From an uncultured Acidobacteriota bacterium (GTDB lineage Bacteria; Acidobacteriota; UBA6911), in the NCBI GenBank assembly GCA_963809485.1, contig CAWEJX010000004.1, forward strand, positions 384,001 through 448,000: DNA of 64,000 nucleotides. Direction: 5' to 3'. Of this stretch, positions 5,841-49,056 are shown piece after piece (position 1 is the stretch's first letter; every line of letters starts with the position of its first letter). Under the pieces are notes generated by a model, which saw only the letters and a list, made by a program, of their open reading frames with translations, was not told the DNA's origin and did not search any database. The position numbers and the translations under genes were made by a program.

Positions 5841-6105
5841 TTGAACGCTGACTTACGCGGGCAAAAGCCGATGAGGCGCTTCCGATCCCCGCAGGGGCCA
5901 GCGCTCCGCGCTGGACAGTTTTCTGCGGCGGCACTGTGGCAAACGCCCGGTTTCTCATAACCTCCATCTCCTTGCCGCACGGCGCTTGCCACAGTTCCGC
6001 CGCAGAAAACTCCATCGGAAGCGCCTCATCGGCTTTTGCTCGCCGACCCTCGCTGAAAAAATCGGCGTTTGTCAGCGCTTTTGTCAGCGTATCTCAGCGT
6101 TTCAA
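5841..6105. repeat. Nested inverted-repeat (REP/REPIN-like) element
   Basis: Perfect 26-bp IR 5861-5886/6014-6039. Inner 31-bp IR with 2 mismatches 5917-5947/5981-6011. Short outer IR near 5841/6094-6105. Confidence 0.7.
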
Positions 6106-6494
6106 AATACGGAGCTGTCAAACTCTATGATTCCCCCGGCAAAGCCGAGGGTTTACCAATAGAATTATTCGATAGTGAATGACGGGGTTGATGCGGGAAT
6201 GACGGGGTCGGACCACGATAAATGTTACAGATATGAATTTTAGGCAGGTTTTTCGCCTCCAAAGCCGGCCTTGCGTTGATTTTTTGGAACCTTTTTTTGC
6301 ATGTAACGATGTCATCAATCTGCGCCCGGCATACTATTCAAGCTTGGAACAAAAAAACAGGGCCAAAATATACGCGCAAGGCCGTTTTTATGTCCATTGA
6401 TGTCATCTATCCTTTTAAACAGCAATAATATATCGTGGTCCGACCCCCTTTCGGACCTATCCCGCATGGTAAGCGGGAGACCCCTTTCTTCTTT

Positions 6495-8155
6495 CTAGCG
6501 CCAGTCGTCGATGCGTGTACTCCCTCCCAGCAACATACCCGGTCCCAGCATGAAATCCGTCACAAACCAGGTTGTCTGGATTCCGCCTCCGGCAACAATT
6601 ATTTTGATTGCGGATGCCTGATTGAACGGTTTTATCTTTTCACCCGAAGGGTATTGAGTTTTTTCAACATTTTCTGAAAACCACTTGCTTAGCTGGTCTT
6701 TCGTCTTAAAACCCAGGCTGTCCTTGAGAAGTGCGGCAACGGACGGATCCATAATGACTGTGGCCGATCCCATTGTAAGAGCCTTCATTTAGTCGCCCAT
6801 CACACATATGGACGGGGTTGTCCCGCACGGCCATCACTACGCTGGAAATATAGGACCAACCGATTCCCACGGTTATAACGCTGTCATTAGGTTTGAATCC
6901 CATCTGCACATGAAAAGGCTCCCACCCTTCGGGCAGCGCCTGCTCGTTTTCCGCAATGCAGACATTGTTGTATTGCATGGTGCTTCCCAGGCTGCTCCAC
7001 GTCGTTTTTCCGCTGTGCAGACCGCCGATGGTTTTCGACATCAGTGTGTAAGCTGCGGCCGATAACCGAATTCGCTTCATTATGCGGTCCCATGACGTTG
7101 GTACCGTAATTCATGCCTATTTCGTCGCGTATGGGTCCGTTGACCACGATAATGTTGGCCATGGAGGACGTGGAGTTTCCAAAAGGTATGTGGTTGGCCA
7201 GGGCGAGGATCACCGGAAGATATTCCCGTTTGGCGCCGGCCATAACAGCGCAGGTTGCCACTCTTTCTACGGTAACTTCCCGCTTGCCTCCCGGCCAGTC
7301 CAATGTCTTGATGACTTCGTCCGGTTTATGAGAAGTGCCTTTCAGCATGTCTGCCACCCGTTCTTCGGTCGGAAGGATAATGGGAAGATAGTCTGTCCAG
7401 TCCCGGTCCTTGAAAAGGCGCTGCAGGTTCTCTTCAGTGTCCGGCCCGAGAAAGCGGGATTCCGCCGCGGGGGGCTCGGGTGCCGGTCCTTTGTATTTCT
7501 CTTTGTCGGTCAGGGGAACGGTCAGGGCGTCGATGAATGCCTGCATCATCGGTTTTCCGCTTACGACGTCTTTGCTCTCAAAAATATATTTATGGTGGAC
7601 CGATTGAGGTTGCCCGGCCACCGGGAAAGGAAAGGATATATATCGAATGGGCGATCCGTTGGTATACTCGAAATCGTGTCCCTGGGCGTATTTGATGATA
7701 TTGGATGCCGCGCCCCCGACGGTGGGAATTTTGAAGTTCTGTTCCAGCGTTTTGCAGTTACGGCTCACGGCCGATGTGCAGCTGTCTCAACCGGATATCC
7801 CGACCATGGCCGCATGGCCCTTTTCGGATATTTCCTTCCAGAGTTCCGGCTGGTCCTGCATGTAGGAGCCTTTGACACTTCGGATCTCCACTTTCACACT
7901 CGGCATATTCTGGGCAAACCAGGCTTTCATTTCCGCATAAATGCTGGGAGCCGCCTGCGGGCCTCCCCAACCGATATCCACCAGGAATATTGTCTTTCCT
8001 TCCAGCGTATCAAGCCGCGGTGTAAGCGGTACGCGATCGACCATTCTATTCGGGGGTGTCGGATTCAATACCCTCATTTTTTCCGCAGAATATGCTGTCG
8101 AACATACAGCGATGAGAAGGACTATCCATACAATGGACCAAAGTTTTTGCCTCAT
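6495..8155 (-). CDS. Exported fused UGSC-family selenoprotein (Sec123 in UDSC), about 552 aa; two +1 frameshifts and one TAA in the 3' part
   Basis: ORF 8155-7787 ends in TGA, in frame with ORF 7768-6887 via GAC AGC TGC ACA TCG GCC (G-U-D-S-C-T-S-A-V). WTDYLPIILPTEERVADML and VNGPIRDEIGMN motifs. It continues in ORFs 7080-6706 and 6788-6495 and is colinear with the paralogue at 39236-37431. N-terminal signal peptide. Confidence 0.8.
7745..7786 (-). promoter_or_regulatory. Bacterial SECIS-like hairpin
   Basis: Directly 3' of the TGA: CAGC-TGCA-cat-CGGC-[CGTGA]-GCCG-taac-TGCA-aaac-GCTG. The loop begins 17 nt after UGA with G at loop position 2. Folded by eye. Confidence 0.6.
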
Positions 8156-8398
8156 GTTGCACCTCCGCTAAGGATATTCGGAATAAGCTGCCTAATTGAC
8201 TCCGGGCCCTTCCTGCAAGAGGCCGCGATGGCTTCCGATATCGAGTGAGATGTACCCTTCAGACATCCGAACTTGCCGACTATTGAAACTGGCGTTATGT
8301 TACATCACAATTGGAAGCTTTAGATAGGGATTTTAGTACACCCTCGCCACCACGCCCTGCTGCGCAAGATGAATCCGGAGGCCTGACCTGGCGGCTTA

Positions 8399-8880: not shown

Positions 8881-9957
8881 CTACGCCGGATTTATTTCCG
8901 AAGCATCCCCCTTATCCAGACGAACCGAATAAAATCCGAAAGGTCTGTCGACCTTTTTTGTGACTATTGGAGCATGCGTGAACCCTGCTTTACAAATTAC
9001 GAATGAAGGGGCATTAATAAAATGCTTTTCCTGTTCCTCGCCGAGCGCTATCTCGATTTCGGCACCCAAATAGTTCGGTCTTTTATCGTCAAGACCCACA
9101 AAAGCCAAAACCTGATCGCTAACATGTTTGTGGGGTTTCGCTCCCCAGTCACCTGTTGCACTATAGAATCCGAAAGCAAAATTAACATTGAAACCCTCCA
9201 GATCCTTGCCCATGTGCCAGGCGAGCGCGTCTGCATTGCCGGGCCCGGTCTTGTCTTTTATGTCCTTCCGGAAAACCATTTTCTTAAACAAGGGATCGTA
9301 TTTGTTCCCCTCAGTTGTTTCCAGCACGCTTCGTTTAGGCAATTCTACCGTATCGTGAGCGCCCTCCAGGCTGCAGACGATGAATGCAAAAGCCTTTTCG
9401 TTCTTCAAGGTCCACTGTGGAAGATGAACAAAGTTTTTGGGGAAACAGCAGACAGTGGGAACACGAAAAATATGTCTTTCGTATTCTTTCCCCACATCAA
9501 ACTCGCATTCTGCGCCCAGGTATTCCGGACGATCACGATCAAGTCCCACAAAAATTAGGCATTCATCGCCCGACGGATGATAATGCCCTCCTGGCTCCCA
9601 GGGCTGCCAGAGCCCGACTTGGCTATAGTGGCCCCACGAGAGATTGACATTGACTCCCTCCAGCGCATCACCCCTTGGCCAAGCAATGGCATCATTATTT
9701 CCCGGCGTATTAGGATGGTTGTAATTCGGCTTCTCCGGCAATGCGAGCTTCTTTATTAAGTGTCCATGTTTTGAACCATCTGGAACATATGGCAAAACAC
9801 CGCTTCTGGGCGCAGTGCCGGCTAGTGCCTTGGTTTTAGGCTCCTGGCCTACGGCGGCAATCGAGCCCATTAAGCTCATTCCCGCCGCGCCAAGAGATAC
9901 ATTCCTGAAGAACTCTCTTCGCGTTGCGCCTGCTTTATCTTTGTTTACGGCATCCAT
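8881..9957 (-). CDS. Tat-exported tandem cupin-like protein (uncharacterised family, paralogue 1)
   Basis: TRREFF Tat motif and GGAGG RBS. Two repeats of H-x-H..(D)E/Q...F.G.D..RP.YLGAE.E...G.E.E.H...P......H.P. Confidence 0.75.
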   Translation of the reverse strand: MDAVNKDKAGATRREFFRNVSLGAAGMSLMGSIAAVGQEPKTKALAGTAPRSGVLPYVPDGSKHGHLIKKLALPEKPNYNHPNTPGNNDAIAWPRGDALEGVNVNLSWGHYSQVGLWQPWEPGGHYHPSGDECLIFVGLDRDRPEYLGAECEFDVGKEYERHIFRVPTVCCFPKNFVHLPQWTLKNEKAFAFIVCSLEGAHDTVELPKRSVLETTEGNKYDPLFKKMVFRKDIKDKTGPGNADALAWHMGKDLEGFNVNFAFGFYSATGDWGAKPHKHVSDQVLAFVGLDDKRPNYLGAEIEIALGEEQEKHFINAPSFVICKAGFTHAPIVTKKVDRPFGFYSVRLDKGDASEINPA

Positions 9958-15799: not shown

Positions 15800-16051
15800 A
15801 CATTCAATCAACAAAATCCTGCAAAAATCTTTCTGAGGCATAAAATAGATCGCCTCCCAGGCAAGAAAGAAAAGCCAATTCCTGAAATTTCAACGGATCC
15901 GGCTGTAATGCCGCCCCGACAAACTTGGCAATTATTCACGGTTTGCTGTGTCTGAATTGGATACCTTTTGCTTTAAACTTGGCAGAAATGGAGCCCTCTA
16001 AGGATCAGGACTACAGCCAGGCAAAATTGTCCGTTCGAAAAATCCGGCCTT

Positions 16052-18031
<1,980 letters not shown>

Positions 18032-18231: not shown

Positions 18232-21200
18232 CTACGGGGATACAACGTATATTATCACCTCAACGGAATGCTCCTGCCTATCATCAACAAGGGGAATGGT
18301 TTCCCCGTCTTGCTTGATACCATCTACGGTCACGGTCATCCCCCCATCCGAGGCGAGCGTTTGCAGGATATCGATGTGATACAGAGTTTCCCGATACCGA
18401 TAGTGAACCTTGAACGATTTCCAGTCCGCCGGCAGGCACGGTGCAAAACGCAGTCTGTCCACTTCCAGCTTCAGCCCTAGAAGTGATTCCACGATAAGCC
18501 GGTACATCCAGCCGGCTGAACCCGTGTACCACGTCCATCCGCCGCGGCCGATGTGCGGCGAGAGCGCATAGACATCGGCCGCCACGACATACGGTTCCAC
18601 TTTATAGGCAGCAATTCTCTCCGGAGATTTGGCATGGTTCACCGGGTTGATCATTGCAAATAATTCCCACGCGCGCTGTTTTTCGCCCAATGCGGCGAAC
18701 GCCATCACCGCCCAGATGGCTGCATGAGTGTACTGCCCGCCATTTTCTCTTACGCCCGGGACGTACCCTTTAATATAGCCAGGATTCAAGTCCGATCGAT
18801 CAAACGGCGGATCCAGTAGCTGGATCAGCGCATGATCTCGGCGAACCAGGCGCTGATCCACCGCTGCCATAGCCATGCGAGAGCGGTCAGCATTGCCCGC
18901 CCCGGATAGAACAGACCAGCTCTGCGCGATCGAATCAATCTGGCATTCGGGATTGCTCGCAGATCCGAGCGGCGAGCCATCGTCAAAGTAAGCCCGGCGA
19001 TACCATTCGCCATCCCAGCCATTCTGCTCGATTTTCTGACGCACTCGAGCCGCTTCCTGCCAGCAACGCTCGGCGAAGGAAACATCACCATATCTGCGGG
19101 CGACTTCCTCGAACTGCATGAGTACTTCATGAAGGAAAAATCCCAGCCAGATGCTTTCGCCCTGACCGTGTTCGCCCACCATGTTCATGCCATCGTTCCA
19201 GTCACCGGAGCCGATGAGCGGCAGCCCGTGCTCTCCAAATCTGAGGCCTCTCACAATGGCTCCCCTGCAGTGTTCGTACAGACTAGCCACTTTTTCAGAC
19301 TGACTGGGCAGATCGTAATAGGAATCCTCTTCCGCACTTACCGGTCGGCCTTCGATGAAATGGACGGCTTCATCCAATACTCCGGTATCTCCTGTGCTCA
19401 GAACGTAGCGGCTTGTTGCCAGAGGCAGCCAGAGGGAATCATCCGAACAATGCGTGCGCACGCCCCGGCCCGAAGGGGGATGCCACCAATGCTGGACATC
19501 TCCCTCCTGGAACTGGCGGGCTGCGCAGCGGAGCAAGTGCGCGCGCACGAGTTGTGGCTCAGCGTGGATAAGCGCCATCACGTCCTGCAACTGGTCGCGG
19601 AACCCGAAAGCACCTCCCGGCTGGTAGTATCCGTTCCGTGCCCAAAGGCGGCACGAGAGAGTCTGGTACAAGAGCCAGCCGTTTGCCAGAACGTTGAGGG
19701 ACTGGTCGGGGGTTTCCACATTGACCGCGCCGAGCGTTTGGTTCCAGTACTGCCACACCGCTTCGAGCGCGGCGCGAGCGGCGATAGACCCCCTGAAGCG
19801 ATGTGTCAGGTTGCCGGCATCATCGGCATCATGCCCTGCACCGAGCCTGAAGATGAACTCACGCTCTTCTCCATCGGCTAATTCGAATGGAACCTGGATC
19901 GCGGCGCAGGGATCCAATGCGGCACCCACCCTTCCGGAAAGCTTCGAGTGCGTCATGGCGGCCGGATTCCGGAGCGTGCCGTTACGCCCAAGGAATTCGG
20001 TCCGGTCGCCGCTGATGTTCCGAATCTCATTATCCACATCGTAGAAAGCAACCCTGTCCGCGAACTCCGTGTTGTATGGATTTCGAGCGAAAAGCGCTCC
20101 GCTTGTGGAATCGACTTCAGTAATTATGTGCATTGCAGATTTTGGCCGCAGGTCTCCCAACACCCATTCCACGTAACCTGTGGCTGAGAGGCTGCGGGAT
20201 CGGCCGGACTCGTTTCGCACTTTCAACATCATGAACTTGATAGGGGCGTCCATGGCCACATATGCCCAAAGTTCTGAGCGGATGCCCCGCTCCGTGTGCT
20301 CGAAGACGCTGTAACCGAATCCGTGCCGCGTGGCGTAAGGCTTCGCTCCGGGGCTCGGCAACGGCGTGGGCGACCAGAAATAGCCGCTTTCTTCATCGCG
20401 GATGTACAGGGCTTCTCCGCTTGAATCGCTCACCGGGTCGTTGACCCAGGGAGTGAGCCGGAATTCGTGGGCATTCTCGCTCCAGGTGCAGCCAATGCCG
20501 CTCTCCGAGATGATGGTTCCGAAGTGCGGATTCGCCAGGACATTCACCCACGGCGCCGGCGTCACTTGCCCGCGCGCGGTCGTGATGACATACTCGCGCC
20601 CATCAGGGGTGAATCCGCCCAGACCGTTGAAGAAAACCAGATCACGGCGAGGCAATGCGGCGGCCGCCGGAGGTTCGGCGCTGCCGGTTCGGGTGGGTCT
20701 AAGGCGCGGGACTGGCGCCTCCACAGGGCCGCGACGATTTATCTGGTCCGCTAGTGATCCCCGACTGTCGGTGATGATGGCGCGAGCAACCGTTTGGAGC
20801 AGAATGCGATCCTCGTTCGACATCTGCTCCGCAGGCCTTACAAAGATGCCCCCCGGCCGATCGGTCACGTTGGCTTCAGTACCTGCGGCAATCAAGCCCA
20901 TGATTTGTTCGTGCAGGTCTTGCCGATAGCCGGCGAGATCTTCGTTCCAGATCACCAGATCGACCGCCAGTCCTTTCAGGCGCCAGTAGGCATGGGCCTG
21001 CACGAGTTGGCGCACCAGATCGATATTAGCCGCATCCCTGATCCGCAACAGCACGATCGGCAAATCGCCTGAAATAGCGTAGCCCCATAGGCCGGATTGT
21101 CCCCGGCTGTTTTTAAGGAGAATGCCCGGGTCGGCGCGCAGCGAGGAATTGGCGTAAATCACAGAACTGGCAAGGCGCCCATAGAGTTGTGCATCAGCCT

Positions 21201-24200
21201 CTGTGGCGTTGATCTGCCGCAGCACGATCTGGTTGTGTGTCCACGCAAGGTCGAAGACTCGATCGGCCAGACGACGATCCTGGTATTTCTCAACAAGGCT
21301 CAGGCACGCATCACGCGTCGCGCCGATGCCGGTAACAATATTGATCGTTGCCGTTTTCTCCGGATCGAGCGTTATCTGATGACGGATTGCGGCGATCGGA
21401 TCCAGCACGGACCCCTCGCTGCCCGAGAGCGCCCCAGGATCGGTCATCGCTCGCGGATCGGCAGCACTATGCCCCCGGCCTATGAAACGCATCCGATCCG
21501 TTTCATAGGAAACTTCACCGATCTCCGCCCCATGAACAGCCATTAGGTGAAACATCCATGGCTCCTGCTCGCCGGCTGACCGGGGCCGACGAGTGCAGAG
21601 GATCGCCTGCCGCTGGCGGATGATTTCGGTCCGAACAAAGAGATTGCTGAGCGCCGGATGCAGCGCGTCCGCGGCAGGCGATGTGAGAACAACTTCAGCA
21701 TAACTCGTTACCTCGATGACCTTGCGTATCCGGGACTGGTTGGTTATGCGGATCCGGCGCAGCTCGATATCGTCCTCGGGCGAAACGCTGATCTCAGTGT
21801 GAGTGTCGAACTCGTGATTGCGGCAGCGGAACTCAGCTCGCGCCTCCGAGAAAATCGCTTCGTAGCCCTGCAATTGCTTAAGCGCCGGCTGATATGCGGT
21901 CGACCAGAATTCTCCGCTCGCCGTGTCGCGGATATAACAGAACGTGCCCCAGTTATCGCTAGTTCGGTCTTCATGCCAGCGCGTGACGGCAATGTTCTTC
22001 CAGCAACTGTACCCGCCGCCCGCGTTTGTGACCATTACATGGTACCTGCCGTTCGATAGCAACTGCACCTCCGGCATAGGAGTGTCGGGACTGCTGAAAA
22101 CACGGATCGACGTCTCCGGGCCGTTGGAGGTTGCAGATGTATCGGAGATCTCGGCGGTGTGCCAATGGAACGCCGAGGCCTTTGGAATACGCTCCTGGAG
22201 CAAAAGCATGGTTGCCTGGAACGACGGATCCGACTCGAACCGCTTCTGCATCGGATGGTTCAGAAGCAGATCGGCCAGAGAGAGAAAACTCATGCCCTCG
22301 TGATGCGCCATGAACGATCGGACCACGGCGCTCGATTGCCCACGCGGCAAATGCGACGGAGTGTAGTCGATTGCTTCATAGAGACCGTATTTCCCTTCCA
22401 GCCCTTCTGCGGCAAGTCGCTCAAGATTCAGGCAGGCCTGCTCGGGCTTCACCATCAGCGCGAGCGCCGAAGCATACGGCGCAATAACCAGATCTTCGGC
22501 TAGTCCACGTTTAAGTCCAAGGCTCGGCACGCCAAACGCGCGATACTGGTAGGTAAGATGGACGTCTAACGCGTTGTAGCAGGATTCAGAAATGCCCCAC
22601 GGTACTCGGCGTTTCCTGCCATATTCGATCTGCCTCTCCACGGCCTCCTTATAGGTCTGGTCGAGCAGCGTATTCTCATGCGTTGGCATCACCAGAAGCG
22701 GCATGAGGTACTCGAACATCGAGCCGCTCCATGAAAGGAGAACCGGCTGTCCGCCGGGACCCGTGAGCAAACGGCCCAGGGCAAACCAGCCTTCCTGTGG
22801 CAGTTGTCCCTGCGCAATCGCCACAAAACTGCAGAATCTGGCTTCCGAAGCCAGCAGGTCGTAATAGCTCGAGTCCCGCCGTCGCTCACTAACGTTATAC
22901 CCGATCGCCAATAGATGGTTGCCCTTGTCGAACAAAAAGCTATAGTCCATATCAGCGAGTTCACCGGATTGCATCGCAAGGCCTTCAATGGCGGCAATTC
23001 TCGCCTTGGCCCGCCGGGTCCCCTCCGTGATAAGCCTTTGAATTTCGCTAAACCATTCGCTCTCAGCCGGGCACGCCTCCAAGCCAAGCTGGTCCTTGAT
23101 TGCCGGCAGCAGCTTTAGATCAAGCCTTGCCAATTCGCGCAACGTTGGGATTTCATCGAGGCTCGGAAACTCGCTGAGTCTATTCGGGGATGTCTGAAGC
23201 GATATCCACGGAACAAGAAACTTCAGCTCATCGAGGGCATCCTGGCATTGCCGCGCAAGGGCGAGTGCCCACCGCTTTGCCTCGCTCTCGGGATCAGCAT
23301 CCAGGCTATCCGCTACCTTAGCGGCGAAGCCCGCCAACCGGCCGAGGCGTTGCCGTGCCTCCGCGAGCGTGGATGGCGGGGAATCGGATTCCAAATCCTT
23401 TTGAAGCTGATTGAGCCGGGTTGGAGCTGTTCCTCTGGTAGCGTCCACGAGGATTCTCAGCGTGTCCCTGGGCCCGTCAAACAATCGCGCTCCCAGGATT
23501 TTGCAGTCTGGAAGTGCGAACAGCCCCTGCCGAAGGGTCAGTAAATGACCCGCGAGGTTTCCGCTGTCTACTGTCGAAATGTACATGGGCAGCAGCGGCT
23601 TCAAGGACAGCGTGTCGTACCAGTTATAGAAGTGGCCTCTGTGGCGCTCCAATGCTTCCATCGTGCGCAGTGCGTTTGCTGTGCGTTCCAGGAGTTGGCC
23701 GGCCGAGATGTATCCAAAATCGTATGCGGACAGATTCGCCAGCAACGCAAGTCCCATGTTCGTCGGCGACGTGCGGTGTCCGACGATTGCAGCCGGCTGC
23801 TCCTGATAGTTGTCAGGCGGCAGCCAATGATCCTCCGAGCCGACGAATGTTTCGAAGTAGGCCCAGGTCTTCCGGGAAAGCTTTTGAAGAAAGATAGTCT
23901 GGTCGGCTGTCAGCCGTGCTGCGCGGCGAGAGAGCGGCCGGCTAATCCACCATGCGATAATGGGGGAGGCGAGCCAGATTGCCAGTATTGGCGCAGCCGC
24001 ACCGGCAGCGGCCGGCTTTGCGAGCGCCAGATGGACTGCAGTGGCAACCGCAATCGCGGGGGCAAGCCACATCATTCGCCAGAAAGCCGCGATATCCGTG
24101 CGGCGATTGCGATCCGGATCGACCGAGAGACTCCATTCGAGAATTCTCCTGTGCGTAACCAGCATCCGAACAGCAGTACGCACAATCGCATCCAGACTGA

Positions 24201-26919
24201 AGTATGCTTCGTAAGGGAGACATAGGATCATAAATGCCGCCTGCGCGAAGTGCCTGGTTGCGCCATGCACTCCGGCGGCGAGATGTTGACTCAAAACTGC
24301 ATCATCCGGTTTTCGAAGCAGATCCAACACGAAGGTTATCAAAGAAGGAATCAGGATAATTCCAGCGATAGACAGGGTCCAAAACCATGGCCGTGACATG
24401 AGCATCCAGCCCAATAGCAGAAGCGCTGTCAACGCTGCAGACACGAGACTGCGGCGAAGATTGTCGAGGATTTTCCATCGAGACAATCCGGAGAGCGGAT
24501 TCTTCTGCCGGCGCCCGCCGAGACCGGGAACGCGCGGCAGCAGCCATCGTGCAATTTGCCAATCTCCGCGAATCCAGCGGTGCCGACGATCTACATCCGC
24601 GCTGTAGTCGCATGGATACTCCTCATACAACGGTACATCACTCAACAATCCCGAGCGTGCGTAGCACCCTTCCAGAAGGTCGTGGCTGAGAATCCGGTTT
24701 TCTGGCAATCGCCCCTTGAGCGACTGCTCGAACGCATCAACATCATAGATCCCCTTGCCGATGAACGAGCCTTCATGAAAGAGGTCCTGATAAACATCGG
24801 AGACGGCGCGTGTGTATGGGTCGATGCCGGGCTCACTCCCGAACAGCTTCGCGTAGCGCGACCGGTTCGAACCCGGAAGACTTGATGCCACACGCGGCTG
24901 AAGGATGCCATATCCATCACCAATGCGCTGCTTATCTTCATCGTACCGCGGACGATTCAGCGGGTGCGCCATGGCTCCAACAAGCTGACAGGCCGAATCG
25001 CGCGGGAGTTGCGTGTCGGTATCAAGCGTAATCACATACTTCACGTTCGATAAGACTTCGGTTGCGCCGATCACCTCCGAAAAATGATCCTCAGCGCCTC
25101 CGCGCAGAAGCGAATTTAGCTCTGCAAGCTTCCCTCGTTTGCGCTCGTACCCCATCCAAATTTTTTCTCCGGGATTCCATCGGCGCGGGCGATGAAAGAG
25201 GAAAAAAGCGCTGCCTTTTGCATTCCAGTATTTTTGGTTCAACTCCTCAATTCGCTTCCGGGCGAGCCGCAGCAGCGGCTCGTCCTCCGGAAGCGTTTCT
25301 TTCTGCGCGTCAGGGAAATCCGTCAATAGGCCGAAATGCAGGTTGTCGTCTCGATTTGCCAGAAAACGAACCTCGAGCGCCTCGACCAGATCTTCGATGT
25401 TTTGGACACTTGAGAGCCTGGTCGGGATCACAACCAGCGTGCGTGATTCCGGCGGAATTCCTGTGGAGAAATCCATGCGCGGCAGCAAGTCCGGCGTTGA
25501 CAGCAATCCCGCCAGCCAGTTTGCAAGCGTAACCGCCAGATGACTTCCGCACAGCAGCAAAGGGACGCCAATCAGGACGAGTAGAAAAACAGGCAATCCG
25601 TCGCTATGCGCCTCCACCAGTAATCCTCCGGCAATAATCACCGTGATCAAGGTGACGGCGCCCAGATAGAGGAGCAACGGAAACCGGCGGCTCTTTCGCT
25701 GCAAAGCCGCCCGGATAGATTGGCGCTCCTCTGCCATTCGTTCGAACTCCGGCAAGCCTCTATCGATCAGGTAAAATCCAACATGGGCCTCCCGGTCATT
25801 GCGGCCTTTCTGAGCCGCTCCCTCGCAGGCTAATTGGATCGCTTTGCGCGCGACCTCGCCTTCGGATAGTTTGCTGCGCTTCGCTATCCTCTCAACCACG
25901 TGACGGTATCTATCACGGGTGGCAAAATCCATCTTGCCGTAGATTTCGCCGGGATCGGAACGTAAGGTCTGCTCGACGACGCTCATGGTCTCGACGAACT
26001 CTCGCCAATCCATCGCGCTTAGAAATCGGAGACTGCCGATACTGTTGCTTATGGAAACCTGATCGGCAGCCTGTTGCTGGTTCTCAGATCGAACTGATTT
26101 TTCGATCGTCCCGCCAGACTCGGAGAGACGCTGCTCAATCCAGGTAAGCGGCAACGCCAGAGCGGTACTCTGTCCCTGTAGCCGGCGCGCAAATTCCGCA
26201 ACAAACGAGCTCGACGCCGGAGGATTCGATCGCGCCATGTCCGCGACCACCAAAATCAGGTTCTTCGGATCCTTGTCGGAAATCTCAATCATCTCGTCGG
26301 CCCAATGGTCGGCGCGATTCTGGTCGGCCTTGTCGGCGGCTATCCGGGCTCCGACACGCCGGAGATTTTCAATCAACGCGAGACGCAGCATGATCGGGAT
26401 GGCCCACAATTCGCCCAACTTCAACGGGGTGACGGTCTGATAGCTTGCCACGAAGCTGCTGAGCGCTTCGGGATCCACGCGTCCATCACTGTGCGAAATC
26501 GTCTCCAGAGCAATGTCATACACCCGCGGAAGATGAGATGGATTGCTCAGCAAGCGGGGTAGTTCCCTGCTATAACCTTTTGGCAAGTGTCTCTTGGCCG
26601 TGTGAATCTGCTCCTCGATCAGATAAAAGTTATCGAGCAGCCACTCCCCGGCCGGTGTAATCCTGCGGTTCGCTTTAACAGCATCCGCGAGAAGGTTGCG
26701 GATGCCAATGAGTACTTCTTCATTCTCGGCCAGCCTTGTCAGAAGCCGGTCTGAAGCGCGTCCCATACTCAACTTGTGGGAGCCGGCCAGAGTCGCGCCA
26801 TGCTGCTTCATCTGGGCTCGGCTGAATAGCTCTGATCGCAGCGGCGGCTCGTTATCGCCATACGTCTTTTCCGGGCCATTACTGCGGAGGCTCGCACTGA
26901 AATGCCGCAGGTTTCCCAT
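18232..26919 (-). CDS. ndvB: Cyclic beta-1,2-glucan synthase (Cgs/NdvB/ChvB; GT84 plus GH94 phosphorylase-like domain)
   Basis: ~2900 aa intact [78 protein letters not shown]. Start codon uncertain (26919 chosen). Confidence 0.93.
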
Positions 26920-27224
26920 TACCGTCCGGCTTGCCTTCAAGTTGATCCCCCCTATTTGGCAGCAAACTCTCAAAAACGCGGACCGCAACCAGAGACGCTC
27001 ATTGGGATCGGTCCCGGAGCGGATCGATCCGTTCGATCCCAAAACCTGCGATGCTGTTTTCGCTTTAGCCGGACACAGCAATTGTTGTTTGCGCTGTTTT
27101 GTTTTCCAGTCCCGATGCCTGCCGCAAGAGTCCGACAGCGCTTTTTAAAATGAAGTCGAAGAAGCAAAAAAACGCCCGGGGCCTAATCCTTGTCGTTAGG
27201 ACGCATTCCAGTGACAGGCAATGA

Positions 27225-29991: not shown

Positions 29992-31476
29992 CTAAGGCGA
30001 CCGTTCAAAAATCTTGCGGAAGTGAAAGCCGTAGATTGCAAAGGTGATTGCCATCGGGAAAAGCTCGGGACGGCGAAACAGCGACCAGAAAAAAAGCTTC
30101 CAATAGTGGATTCGCTCTTTACCGACGACTCCCAAAAAGACAATGGATTTGGAAAGCGCTATAAGGTGGGTTGTGCGGATTCGTGCCCTTCTGCTATGAA
30201 GCGGCTTGTAGGTCCTCAGGAATTCAAGAACGCGCGCGTAGTATTCCTTTGGAGAGTAGATTGTCCCAACGACTTTCTTGTACCCGTCCAGGAGAACCTC
30301 AGCGTTCATCTTAGGGATGAAATTCAGCGAGAAGTCCGTGTTGTCCCCGGTGCTGGAACTCAGCAGCCTTCCCTCTGCGACTAATCGCTGATGAAGCCGG
30401 GTCCCGCGAGGGGCGTTCAGGATCCCGACCATGGCGGTGACAATACCGCTGTCACGTATGAATGCGATGAGTGTATTAAAAATTGACGGCGGATCATTGT
30501 CAAAACCCAGGATGAATCCCGCCGTAGACCTGAAGCCCGGAACGCTGGATGGCATGGACAGAGCCGAGCAAATCACGGTTCTTGTTGGGTATCTTCCTGC
30601 ATTCGAGCAGGCTGCTTTCGTTGGGGCTCTCGATACCCACAAAAACGCTTTCAAATCCTGCCCGCACCATCAGGTGCATCAGCTCCTCGTCATCAGACAT
30701 GTTGAGGGATGCCTCGGTGGAGAGAGAAAACGGATGGTCGTAGCGGTCCATCCACTCGATGAGACCGGGAAGAATCTGCTCCTTTAGTTTGCCTTTGTTC
30801 CCGATGAAGTTGTCATCGACGAAGAACACATGTCCGCGCCATCCGAGCAGGCGCAGCTGGTCCATCTCCGCGATGATTTGCTCAATGGTTTTTGTGCGCG
30901 GTACGCGCCCGTAAAGAACGGTGATATCGCAGAACTCGCAGTCGTAGGGACAGCCCCGCGAGTATTGAAGGTTCATGCTCGCGTAGTGGCGGAAGTCTAT
31001 GAGTTCCCAAAGAGGGGCCGGTGTCGTTGTGATGTCGGCCCACTGCGTTGTGGTGTAGAGATGCTGTGCGCGGGAATGGGCGAGATCCTCAAGAAAGAGC
31101 GGGAGGGTGATTTCCGCCTCATTCAGCACAAAGTGATCCACACCCTCGAATTCATCATGCCGTGCGGTAAACAGAGGGCCGCCGGCAACGACCTTTGTCC
31201 CGAGTCTGTTGCATCGCTCTATGACAGCTCTGTGCAGACGCCTCCTGAACGGACATCGCACTCAGAAACACATAGTCTGCCCGGGCTATCTCGCTGTCTT
31301 TGAGCGCACGGACATTGAGATCAACCAGCGTTTTCTGCCATTCGGCCGGGGAGCATGGCAGCCACGGTCAAAAGGCCCAGGGGCGGTTCGCCGGCTTTCT
31401 TTGAAACAAACCTTAATGCGTGCCTGAAGCTCCAGAATGTATCGGGAACCCGGGGGGAGACAAGGAGGATTTTCAT
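29992..31476 (-). CDS. B12-binding radical SAM protein with DUF4070-type C-terminus, three +1 frameshifts
   Basis: [63 protein letters not shown]. Frameshifts at ~31345, ~31232 and ~30525; 1485 minus 3 nt gives 494 codons. Confidence 0.8.
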
Positions 31477-37430: not shown

Positions 37431-39236
37431 TCATTTCCAATCAGATACCTTTATACCCCGACCGATTCTGAAGTTGGTGACATAAAAAGTGCTCTGAGTC
37501 TCACCGCCGACTACCACGATGCGTATGTCTCTTGGGTTCGTATAGGGTTTGATCCGCAGTGTCTTGTTTCCGTCCTGAAATGCTTTGACCCAGCTTGCAT
37601 AAGGCTCCAGGCCTTGATTACCCAGTCCCCAGACTGTTGAATAGTGAACGCCGTTCGACCAATACTGGTCAACGGTCATTTGAAAGTTATCGCAGAAATA
37701 CTTGGATAACTTTTCCTTTGTGTCGAACCCATAGGAGTCCTGAAGCATCCTGGCAACGGTCGGATCCATATAAATCGTTACGGCTCCACCTCCGGCAAGC
37801 CCGTGCGCATAATCGACCATCATTTGTGCCGGGTTGTAGGAAGTCATCTCTCCCGAACTGTGAATCATTGTGTCTCCGGAACCGACCGCCACAACACTCT
37901 CTCCCGGTTTGAACCCGAGTTGCTGAACCAGAGGGGTCCAGCCCGTCGGCAAGGCTTCTTCGTTCTCTACTGTCACGACGCTGTTGTATTGCAGGTTGTT
38001 GCCCTGAGACTCCGGGCTGGTGCCGGATTCGAGATATTCCGTCGGATAGACATGCACTCCTGTGGCGGTTTTTCCCAGCAGTAAAAAGGCTCGGCCGAGA
38101 ATAGCATTTGTCTCATTCCATGGACCCAATGCCCCTACCTTGTAGTTCATCTTAAGCTCGTTGCGTATTGGGCCGCCGACGAATATCGCATTAGTAAACG
38201 AAACGGAAGACAAGGCCAGCGTACCGGAAGCGGCAGCAGACAGAATGGTCGGGAGCATTGAACGCTTGGCTCCCGCCATCACTGCGGCGATCGCCACATT
38301 TTTCACACTGCATTGCCTGGCGCCCGGCAGCATGTCATTTCTGGAGACAAAGTCTGTGGGCTTCCGCTTCGTTCCTGCAAGCATGGCCTCGACTCTCTCC
38401 TCTGTCGGAAGAACTATCGGTGCATAGTCGGTCCAGTCATTCCGTTTAAACAGCTCTTGGAGATTCTCTTCTGTATCCGTCAATGTAGGGGGAACCGCTC
38501 TCGCTGCAGGCAAGCCGGTCATGGATTCTTCCGCGCTGGGAGCGACCGTAAGTCCATCCACGATTTCCTGAGCAAAAGGCTTTCCGGTGACAGGGTCGTT
38601 CCCATTGACATAGGCAGAAAGAACGCTCTGTGGCTGACCGGCAAACGGCTGCGGAACGACAGTCCAGCGGGCCGATTTGCCGCTAAGATATTTCTTATCG
38701 TAGGCGATGAAGCGGTAAGGCCCCGTCCCGACAATGTTGACGCAGGGCTTCCCCGGTTTAAGCTCATTCTCGATTGTGCGCGCATGCCGAGCCTCGGCCA
38801 TGACACATCCGTCTCAACCTGCCACGCCCAGAATCGCCGCATCGGCGTTCGCAGCCAATTCTTTCAACAACCCAGGATCGTCAACCATAAAGGCGCCGTT
38901 CTTGACCTTGTACACCAGCTTGGTTGTAGGATGATTTTTTGCGAACCATTTTTGCAGCTCTTCAAAGAATATGCCATTGGACTTTGCATCTCCCCAATTC
39001 TCCGACACATACCAGATCGTTTTTCCATCAACTGTATCCAGTCGTGGTATGAGCGGGGCGCGTTCTGCAATCTTGTTGGGAATCTCCGGATTCAACACCG
39101 TTACAAGCCCGAGGGATGTATCCTTCGAGCTGCGCGAAGCCTGAGGCGCCGCGATCGTTGGCATGAACACGTATGCAGATAGCGCAATAATGACGGCGCA
39201 TAATGCTGCACCGGCGAATTTTGTCCATTTTCTCAT
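37431..39236 (-). CDS. Exported fused UGSC-family selenoprotein (Sec141 in UDGC), 601 aa, intact
   Basis: ORF 39236-38814 ends in TGA, in frame with ORF 38801-37431 via GAC GGA TGT GTC (G-U-D-G-C-V-M). WTDYAPIVLPTEERVEAML motif, GGAGGAG RBS and N-terminal signal/anchor. Confidence 0.85.
38772..38813 (-). promoter_or_regulatory. Bacterial SECIS-like hairpin
   Basis: After the TGA: GA-TGTG-t-CAT-g-GCCGA-[GGC]-TCGGC-ATG-cgcg-CACA-a-TC. A G-starting loop 20 nt from UGA. Folded by eye. Confidence 0.6.
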
Positions 39237-47438: not shown

Positions 47439-49056
47439 ATGAAAAACGACAGCATCGTAGTACCCCCTCACCCTGACGTACGCTCGCCATGGAGTCCTCT
47501 CCGGCAGCCGGTGTTCCGTGCCCTTTGGATCGCCACAATCGTTTCCAATCTGGGCACCTGGATGCAGAATGTGGGCGCATCCTGGCTGATGACTGCCCTG
47601 AGCCCGTCCCCTCTGATCATTGCCATGGTGCAGGCGGCGACGAGCCTTCCCATGTTCCTGCTCGCCTTGCCGGCCGGAGCCTTGGCAGATATAGCGGATA
47701 GACGCCGCCTTTTATTGATCACTCAGTTCTGGATGCTTGCAGCCGCGGCAGCCTTGAGTGCGGTAACCTATGCCGGTGCAATGACTCCGGTTTTGCTCCT
47801 CTCACTCACCTTTATGATGGGCGTTGGGACTGCCATGAACGGACCGGCATGGCAGGCGATTGTTGGCGATTTGATTGGTCCTCGTGAGCTTGGCGCCGCA
47901 GTCTCGTTGAACAGCGCGGCTTTTAATCTGGCTCGCGCTGTCGGTCCAGCCCTGGGGGGTATCCTTCTTGCACGGACGGGCGCAGGCACTGTTTTTCTGT
48001 TGAACGCACTGTCATTTATGGGAGTGCTCTTCGTTCTTTACGGCTGGAAATCAAAGGCACGGGAGAGCGTGCTACCGGCCGAGCGCTTCGTGGGCGCTAT
48101 CCGAGCCGGCGTGCGCTACGCTCGGCATGCTTCACCGGTGCACGCGGTCCTGATACGGACGGCGGCATTTATTTTGTTTGGAAGCGCGATTTGGGCGCTT
48201 GCTTCCGCTCGTCGTCAAAACCGGAATGGGACGGGGTCCCTCGGCATACGGTGTGTTAGTGGGTTGTCTCGGAGCGGGGGCGTTGATAGGCGCAGCACTG
48301 CTTCCAAGACTGAAAGGCAAGACATCTGTTGATATCCTGGTTGTCGGAGCCAGCGCTGTCTTTGCAGCAGTTCTGATTGGCGCCGGCCTGATTCGCAACT
48401 ATGCCGTAATGATCGCGCTGATGCTGCTTGGAGGCGCGGCATGGATTGTGGTGCATTCAATTCTGAATGTGGCAGCTCGAATGGTTGTCCCGGCATGGGT
48501 TCAAGCCCGCTCATTGGCATTTTATCTGCTCGTTTTCCAGGGCGGCACCGCCGTGGGAAGTCTCGTCTGGGGCGGCCTCGCCGGAGTATTGGGTGTTGAT
48601 TCGACTATGGTGGCTGCTGGCGTCGGAATGATCCTTAGCCTGGCTGCCGCCTTCTTCTTTCCTCTTCAAGGCGCCGAGTCCCTGGATCTCAGAACTGCCT
48701 CATATTGGCCGGAACCCGGCTTCGTGCCCGAATCGATCGCCGACAGTGCACCTGCATTTGTCACAGTCGAATACCGGGTCGATCCCCTTCACGCGGAGGA
48801 ATTCGTGCGCATTATGGGTGACATGGAGCGTATCCGTCGTCGTGACGGTGCGTTGCAGTGGGGCCTTTTTGTCGACGCGACCGATCCAGGGAAGTACCTG
48901 GAGGAGTTTCTGGTCGAGTCCTGGCTCGAACACCTGCGTCAGCATGAACGCGTCACTGCATCCGATCACGAATTGCAGGAACGGGTCCGATCCCTGCACG
49001 CCGGTCCGGATCCGCCTCGCGTGTCACACTATTTTTCGGCTGGCCGGAGAAAATAG
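47439..49056 (+). CDS. MFS transporter (MFS_3/DUF894 type), one +1 frameshift (~48200)
   Basis: SPLRQPVFRALWIA..VSNLGTWMQ, AGALADIADRRR, C-terminal RRRDGA..W...ESWLEHLRQHERVT. 1618 minus 1 nt gives 539 codons. Confidence 0.88.

Follow-up and report, generated by a model that had tools for sequence, protein, structure and literature searches.

Does a minus-strand locus that is tiled by four short open reading frames (ORFs) encode a single selenoprotein and, if it does, what kind of protein would that be? The question is raised by positions 8155..6495 of a 64,000-nucleotide stretch of DNA, hereafter the window, from an uncultured Acidobacteriota bacterium (lineage UBA6911; GenBank assembly GCA_963809485.1, contig CAWEJX010000004.1, positions 384,001 to 448,000 of the forward strand). 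A previous reading of the letters, made without database searches (the sequence-only reading), had proposed here a hidden selenoprotein in which a signal peptide, a domain of the UGSC family and a large partner domain are fused. Our analysis makes it likely that the locus is a real two-domain gene with a selenocysteine (Sec) codon, read through the UGA with a bacterial selenocysteine insertion sequence (bSECIS)-like hairpin, in whose product the U-x-x-C motif would form a redox module for the partner domain; this particular copy is broken in the assembly.

The in-frame TGA and the selenocysteine machinery

The gene starts at an ATG at 8155, and the ORFs found over it are the same four that had been described before: 8155-7787 (122 aa), 7768-6887 (293 aa, in the frame of the first), 7080-6706 (124 aa, +1 frame) and 6788-6495 (97 aa, +2 frame), all on the minus strand. 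The first of them ends at an in-frame TGA at 7789..7787, where the sequence-only reading had seen G-U-D-S-C. Translated as residue 123, U, this codon gives ...AAMVGISG-U-DSC-TSAVSR..., as had been claimed, and the frame then stays open to 6887. In the alignment of 53 paralogue models of at least 400 aa from the same genome, the column holds TGA in 39, another residue in 12 (S, A, T, L, M or G, but in no case Cys) and a gap in 2. Intact genes of at least 540 aa with exactly one internal TGA make up 36 of the 39 TGA paralogues, the remaining 3 being shorter. Motifs at the site include USTC, UDGC, UGSC, UGTC and others, and the UDSC of the window gene retains the U-x-x-C spacing. The window itself contains an intact paralogue of 601 aa (39236..37431, minus strand), which is 42% identical to the window gene and reads VAG-U-DGC with its TGA at 38816..38814; the earlier remark that the codon is kept in a diverged paralogue 31 kb away is thus accurate. 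In folds and searches this paralogue served as our substitute for the window gene. It appears in the ORF track as two pieces, of 140 aa and 456 aa.

The sequence-only reading had suggested looking for homologues with Cys at the TGA position and for selA, selB, selC and selD in the genome, and all of these were found. At the same column in other phyla, 67 of 76 loci have TGA and 9 have a Cys codon (TGC or TGT), while the window gene's own subfamily includes P0003, a full-length homologue that has Cys (GISGCDSCTSS); several full-length representatives of database clusters also have Cys there. The genome (6.04 Mb in 21 contigs) encodes SelA (564.7 bits), SelB (391.3 bits), SelD (345.5 bits) and a tRNA-Sec (70.6 bits), which ARAGORN classes as tRNA-SeC with anticodon tca. 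The selD gene (contig C8:80982-81905) has one in-frame TGA itself, which makes the selenophosphate synthetase, too, a probable selenoprotein. On the strength of these comparisons, the assignment of Sec to TGA 7789-7787 is well supported.

Six nucleotides ahead of the ATG, a Shine-Dalgarno (SD)-like GGAGG can be read from the sequence (8162..8166). The start codon and the hydrophobic N-terminal segment of the translation (8087..8155, residues ~1-23, MRQKLWSIVWIVLLIAVCSTAYS) form a probable signal peptide: the N-terminus MRQKLWSIVWIVLLIAVCSTAYSA looks signal-peptide-like by eye, so the export signal proposed for this gene is borne out as probable, and the alignment shows a similar N-terminus in most paralogues of the same genome.

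A hairpin that accompanies the codon

A SECIS-like hairpin directly after the TGA had also been noticed. We found it at 7784..7745, with stems at 7784-7781/7748-7745, 7780-7777/7756-7753 and 7773-7770/7764-7761 and an apical loop, CGUGA (7769-7765), which starts 18 nucleotides past the UGA. Ungapped RNAalifold of 40 paralogue segments returned no consensus structure because loop sizes and offsets differ between paralogues, and we therefore ranked windows gene by gene: the 28-nucleotide window TGA+10..+38 was compared with the in-frame windows of its own gene, with the cut at the top 5%. For the window gene, this segment falls within the 4.1% most stable windows. A top-5% hairpin is present in 24 of the 39 Sec paralogues and in 0 of the 12 non-Sec paralogues, with median window energies of -10.1 and -3.6 kcal/mol, respectively (Mann-Whitney p 5e-5); in other phyla, it is present in 48 of 67 TGA loci and in 1 of 9 Cys loci. 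Between subfamilies the stem sequence changes and the pairing is retained. The hairpin, weak when taken alone, is therefore supported by the comparison within the family.

Family membership and the fused partner domain

Membership of the UGSC family, as claimed, holds at the level of Pfam: the window gene scores 38.5 bits against PF24696 (cut-off 25) over residues 29-184 (7604..8071, minus strand), a domain that spans the Sec codon, and the in-window paralogue scores 35.2 bits. Neither reaches the cut-off of 125 bits of the NCBIfam equivalog NF041046 (25.4 bits for the window gene, 21.6 bits for the paralogue). The partner domain of ~400 aa, taken from the intact in-window paralogue, gave no Pfam or NCBIfam match at E up to 10. 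It is recognisable by the blocks W-T/G-D-x-x-P-x-x-x-P-T..E.V..M, T-V-E-x-x-A-x-x-A-V-M-A-G and N-G-P-I...N...G-R, which are present in the window gene and in the alignment and which doubled as search patterns for the loci of other phyla. Its first part is read in the start-codon frame (7055..7470, minus strand; translation and alignment with paralogues and homologues) and carries WTDYLPIILPTEERV, TVERVATCAVMAGAKREYLPV and NGPIRDEIGMN, and the N of GPHNEANSVIG falls in an invariant column. The TDYLP-type motif noted earlier is thus present, as WTDYLPIILPTEERV, but calling it a variant was not justified, since the motif stays within the normal range of the consensus [WM][TG]D[YGF][LNA]P.

To judge from database searches, the fusion of UGSC and partner domains is the common architecture of a very large family. 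Of 7,999 scored, 1,830 were matches in a sequence search with the intact paralogue; almost all of these have a length of ~444 aa, cover 75% of the query and start just past the Sec position, and on these grounds they are gene calls cut at the TGA. One of the 1,830 carries the NCBI name 'UGSC family (seleno)protein', and a search with the ORF called under genetic code table 11 likewise hit clusters of that name, of 420-446 aa. The profile search of 1.84 billion representatives gave 8,724 clusters with an E threshold of 1e-3 and 5,117 with one of 1e-10, whose representatives show two length modes, ~440 aa (starting at the Sec position) and ~560 aa (full length); the ten full-length representatives that we inspected have CxxC, a single Cys or no Cys at the site. 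In genome contigs of other organisms, relatives are encoded in 544 of the 619 stretches picked as candidates; of the 76 loci retained, most align to query residues ~45 to 601. These loci span Acidobacteriota, Chloroflexota/Dehalococcoidales, Thermodesulfobacteriota, Actinomycetota, Latescibacterota, Binatia, Bacillota and Alpha-, Beta- and Gammaproteobacteria. The fusion that the sequence-only reading had picked out is thus real, but it is nothing special to this locus, given these counts and a report from 2008. That UGSC and its partner can be encoded apart, as the sequence-only reading had it, is supported by a split form in Pseudonocardia acaciae, described below. The family to which the window gene belongs is known but unstudied.

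Two other ways of reading the TGA have to be weighed against these data. If it were a true stop, the locus would yield an exported fragment of 122 aa and, without any selenocysteine, a separate C-terminal protein from GTG 7768; this is how gene callers cut the locus, and nearly all database homologues, at ~444 aa and starting just past the TGA, look the same. We consider this very improbable, since the reading frame continues past the TGA in 39 paralogues and in 67 loci from other phyla, Cys takes its place in 9 loci and in P0003, the Pfam UGSC match runs across it, the hairpin tracks it, the full Sec machinery is present in the genome, and GTG 7768, the start of the second ORF, has no SD-like sequence ahead of it. 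That the TGA is read as a standard amino acid, under code 4 or 25, might be thought of because many genes have an in-frame TGA, but the chance of it is close to nil: family genes have one internal TGA each, always at one column, other TGAs terminate family genes (e.g. at residues 596 and 602), selA and selB have no internal TGA, and homologues align Cys at the position. Selenocysteine thus remains the preferred reading of the codon.

Predicted structure and proposed mechanism

The AlphaFold2 (AF2) model of the intact paralogue, built on a 34-row alignment, has a predicted local distance difference test score (pLDDT) of 85 and a predicted template modelling score (pTM) of 0.82. In this model the UGSC domain is an alpha/beta three-layer sandwich with the Sec-x-x-Cys motif just ahead of a helix; residue 141 (U) comes after strand 133-139 and just ahead of helix 142-158. 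The structures that match residues ~70-238, with Z 7.9-10.2, are of the Rossmann, flavodoxin, LacI-half and CheY-like kinds, which marks a generic fold, and thioredoxin is absent among the top 50 VIA matches listed. The partner domain folded alone reaches pLDDT 86.7 and pTM 0.88. A VIA search with this model gave no clear match (best Z 5.5; 2 of 48,161 chains reach Z 5), which is too little to establish a new fold, and a sequence profile search of the PDB returned only serpin matches at chance level (E ~0.2). Class I fumarate hydratase, which Foldseek proposed for the full and C-domain models (E 3e-4 to 6e-4), was rejected, as the template modelling (TM) scores were 0.14-0.21 and the root-mean-square deviations 17-19.

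The alignment shows four invariant residues (numbering of the in-window paralogue): R190 in the UGSC part and D270, N377 and E424 in the partner domain. In the proposed mechanism, U123 and C126 would form a selenenylsulfide/selenol-thiol redox couple serving the partner domain, whose invariant Asp, Asn and Glu (D270, N377, E424) may bind or act on a substrate; in cytoplasmic forms, the couple could be recycled by a neighbouring thioredoxin-reductase-like flavoprotein.

Genomic neighbours and the split form

Such a neighbour emerged from a scan of 131 flanking ORFs in other phyla. Genes adjoining the homologues encode a thioredoxin-reductase-like flavoprotein of ~310 aa (9 loci), SDR proteins (10), SelD-like AIRS proteins (2) and rhodaneses (2). 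Five of the nine homologues next to a thioredoxin-reductase-like gene have legible N-termini, and these begin at the conserved start and have no hydrophobic leader; the other 4 are illegible. Several Acidobacteriota homologues (L030, L031, L053, L066, L090, L093, L094 and L098) begin M..RRK.L..LG.SPA.LAG, leaders that look like twin-arginine export signals, whereas the window's genus would have Sec-type export leaders.

In Pseudonocardia acaciae DSM 45401 (locus L118), the two modules are separate. A gene for a CPTC thioredoxin-like module with the partner domain, which has WSDGLPVVPPTPARV and TVEKVAINAVMAGC, is followed by a canonical UGSC gene (ALAD-U-GSC; NF041046 148.3 bits), and the partner's stop adjoins or overlaps the UGSC start, which suggests coupled translation.

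Within the window's own genome, the neighbours of the paralogues are molybdenum hydroxylase large subunits (9), flavoproteins of the flavin adenine dinucleotide (FAD)/CO-dehydrogenase type (6), carboxylesterases (5), FAD_binding_2 proteins (5) and aldehyde:ferredoxin oxidoreductases (4). Two islands of family members, C12:46000-208000 and C4:67000-348000, contain xanthine-dehydrogenase-type molybdenum enzymes and aldehyde:ferredoxin oxidoreductases and also hold coenzyme A (CoA)-transferases, glycyl-radical enzymes and large outer-membrane barrels. In addition, a protein of ~185 aa with a weak DUF4352 match lies beside 7 family members, several times directly downstream (C12:204284-204850, C20:921246-921812, C21:97061-97606 and four more), and may be a partner.

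Several observations weigh against a selenoprotein that works as a redox module for its partner domain. The 81-nucleotide stretch of the hairpin region folds weakly by itself (-17.3 kcal/mol, z -0.44), and 64 of 200 shuffled sequences fold equally well. In the fixed window, 15 of the 39 Sec paralogues are without a top-5% hairpin, one subfamily having a longer and later hairpin instead, and as the paralogues are kin, the hairpin counts and the p value overstate independence. Thioredoxin-reductase-like neighbours stand at only 9 loci, SDR neighbours are equally frequent (10), and most neighbours vary. No Cys of the partner domain is invariant in the alignment. Furthermore, both Sec and Cys are absent from the site in 12 paralogues and in many database members, so the partner domain is not always in need of a redox couple; it seems that it can manage without one. 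Full-length paralogues of this kind, which also lack the hairpin, include C12:100356-102218, C20:468168-469844 and C9:8439-10199. Finally, other genes of the window are split as well, and therefore the breaks at the 3' end of the window gene may be errors of the assembly.

The broken 3' end

The closest paralogues for DNA alignment are a copy on contig C9 (88% identical) and C4:325565 (77%). Compared with them, the window gene has one extra base near 7053/7054, where the first frame break lies (7053..7054), one more near 6802, the second frame break, and a TAA at 6791-6789 where paralogues have Tyr (TAT or TAC). This TAA, in frame just ahead of the fourth ORF, is a lesion besides the two frameshifts and had escaped the sequence-only reading. 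The middle part of the partner domain is legible only in the +1 frame (6803..7052, minus strand), within ORF 7080-6706, residues 10-93 of which align with the main frame of the paralogues. The last part is read in the +2 frame (6495..6788, minus strand); it ends ...STRIDDWR, which fits the C-terminal consensus ..D.WR of the family, and stops at TAG 6497-6495. Because the two extra bases and the TAA interrupt the last third, no full-length protein can come from the assembled copy.

Of the 31-mers of the stretch, about half occur in contigs from wetland and soil metagenomes, and we aligned these contigs to it at 92% identity or above; from parts that lacked contig cover in single runs we drew no conclusion. 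The base at 7054 is missing in 35.1 of 42.4 depth in X4 and in 15.8 of 55.7 in X2, and that at 7053 in 4.92 of 39.9 in X2. The base at 6802 is missing in 17.9 of 26 depth in X2 and in 7.35 of 11.6 in X4. TAC stands in place of TAA (plus strand 6789 T>G) in 26.3 of 26.3 depth in X1, 17.9 of 26 in X2 and 7.35 of 11.6 in X4. The residual depth may represent the allele of the window or short contigs ending there. Contigs of an RNA library (X15) cover 7064-7313 and 7645-8118, with the TGA included; as DNA carry-over is possible, we did not count them as evidence of expression.

Frame breaks also split the genes for Cpn60 (16014-17679, minus strand) and MFS_3 (47439-49053, plus strand) into two overlapping ORFs each, and a radical SAM/DUF4070 gene (29995-31261, minus strand) is split likewise. 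In Cpn60/GroEL the break coincides with a G-run; contig C1 has a second groEL, which is unbroken.

Whether the copy is a decaying allele or a mis-assembled one we rate about equal. If all three lesions are assembly or consensus errors, the locus makes a full-length selenoprotein of ~560 aa, and we give this slightly less than an even chance. It would agree with the at least three other frame-broken genes in the window and the Cpn60 break at a G-run, with metagenome contigs of at least 92% identity that have neither extra base and have TAC, and with the fact that all three frames give a family-like protein up to the normal ...IDDWR end. It is harder to reconcile with three lesions in ~265 nucleotides, two of them outside homopolymers and one a substitution, a density that is high if errors are random and breaks come about once per 13 kb, or with the depth outside the gapped allele at 7054 and 6802 in X2 and X4, for which short contig ends could account. 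Moreover, a separate frameshift is present in the closest paralogue (C9, 88%), so that decay does happen in the UGSC-partner family. The other view is that the lesions are real and that the gene either was inactivated recently, as one paralogue among many, or yields no more than a truncated product of 422 aa; to this we grant the same weight, just below one half. Three independent disabling changes speak for it, other members among the 62 loci are fragmentary or broken (C8:363864, C12:195416, C4:67278, C20:1344878 and C9:14154), and redundancy makes loss cheap. Yet all lesions fall in the last third with the 1,100 nucleotides upstream clean, the segments between the lesions retain the character of the family, frame breaks occur elsewhere in the assembly, and the intact allele is the better supported one in the metagenome contigs.

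Expansion of the family in the genus

A tblastn search of the window gene against its own genome revealed 62 loci, 36 of them intact with Sec, and the family profile gave 46 matches at E up to 1e-10. Matches were obtained in all 18 of 18 genomes of the same genus, with 11-45 in each (36 in a one-contig genome of 6.9 Mb), as against 2 of 12 genomes from other families of the class, with 2 matches each. Among the 150 matches listed from these genomes, all but 4 have exactly one internal TGA. The UGSC-partner family thus occurs widely among bacteria and has undergone a huge expansion in this genus. The expansion is the most interesting point of the analysis although it lies outside the coordinates of the window gene.

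A broader interpretation we offer as a speculation that we think rather unlikely to hold in full: in the genus, seemingly of wetland and soil, one family would account for much of a selenoproteome of record size, with at least 36 intact, mostly signal-bearing UGSC-partner selenoproteins per genome. Often standing in islands that also contain molybdenum hydroxylases, aldehyde:ferredoxin oxidoreductases and flavoproteins, these might be diversified extracytoplasmic selenoenzymes for many related substrates, with a partner fold that has no solved relative.

Other features of the window

Just downstream of the gene lie nested inverted repeats (5857-6043) with 30-nucleotide arms that are 97% complementary and, inside them, 31-nucleotide arms that are 94% complementary. 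A further pair of 20-nucleotide repeats (6204-6223 / 6428-6447) is 95% complementary. The repeats at 5857-6043 and 6204-6447 may belong to a structured or mobile element. On the other side, a neighbour of 358 aa (8884-9957, minus strand) has an N-terminus that resembles a twin-arginine translocation (Tat) signal (RREFFRNVSLGAAGMSL) and, by eye, an internal duplication, and has no Pfam match. An ORF of 2,949 aa at 18235-27081 (minus strand), with GH94 supersandwich and catalytic domains and a glucoamylase-like domain, looks like a cyclic beta-1,2-glucan synthase.

Comparison with known systems

The UGSC family is the 'UGSC-containing protein' of Zhang and Gladyshev, and the available parts of the publications that mention it (PMC13188914, PMC2398784) give it no function. 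With the canonical form (NF041046/PF24696), the window gene shares the Pfam domain and Sec or Cys in U/C-x-x-C at the same column. The canonical protein is standalone and of ~150 aa, whereas the window gene has UDSC instead of UGSC, a signal-like leader and an extra domain of ~400 aa, and scores 25.4 bits against the cut-off of 125. Another parallel is the 'UGSC/Unknown_1 fusion' from ocean metagenomes (PLoS Genet 2008, PMC2398784, Fig. S1A), which, as described in the accessible text of that paper, likewise joins a UGSC selenoprotein to a conserved domain of unassigned function. The partner domain of the window gene is possibly Unknown_1. The same text guessed a thioredoxin-like fold for UGSC, whereas our AF2 model is a Rossmann/flavodoxin-like sandwich.

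In Pseudonocardia acaciae the same two modules occur, but as two genes in reversed order (partner first), with an extra CPTC module on the partner and no signal peptide seen. Biochemistry could start directly from three associations: the occurrence of both split and fused forms, the thioredoxin-like module of Pseudonocardia and the thioredoxin-reductase-like neighbours. In automatic annotation these genes are broken at the Sec codon, and the database homologues listed are, with few exceptions, pieces of ~444 aa. A very large selenoprotein family of fixed two-domain design therefore goes largely unseen.

With the largest published selenoproteomes, the genome shares the possession of dozens of Sec-coding genes. 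According to the parts of the reports at hand, Desulfosediminicola flagellatus has 46 selenoprotein genes (PMC12013277), the Olavius delta-1 symbiont at least 57 Sec genes, and a Methylomirabilota metagenome-assembled genome 63 (PMC13188914). In print, as far as the text of PMC2398784, PMC13188914, PMC1976440, PMC12013277 and PMC13326102 goes, supplements aside, an expansion of the UGSC family was not found. The published sets, as described in those portions, are spread over many families, whereas here one family contributes 36 intact and 3 shorter Sec genes. About forty Sec genes, together with 11-45 matches per genome of the same genus, would place the genus close to, or beyond, the largest bacterial selenoproteomes published, and it would have come to this size with one family and with apparently exported forms. 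This raises the question of which selenium-dependent chemistry takes place outside the cytoplasm of these bacteria, and how these proteins become re-reduced there.

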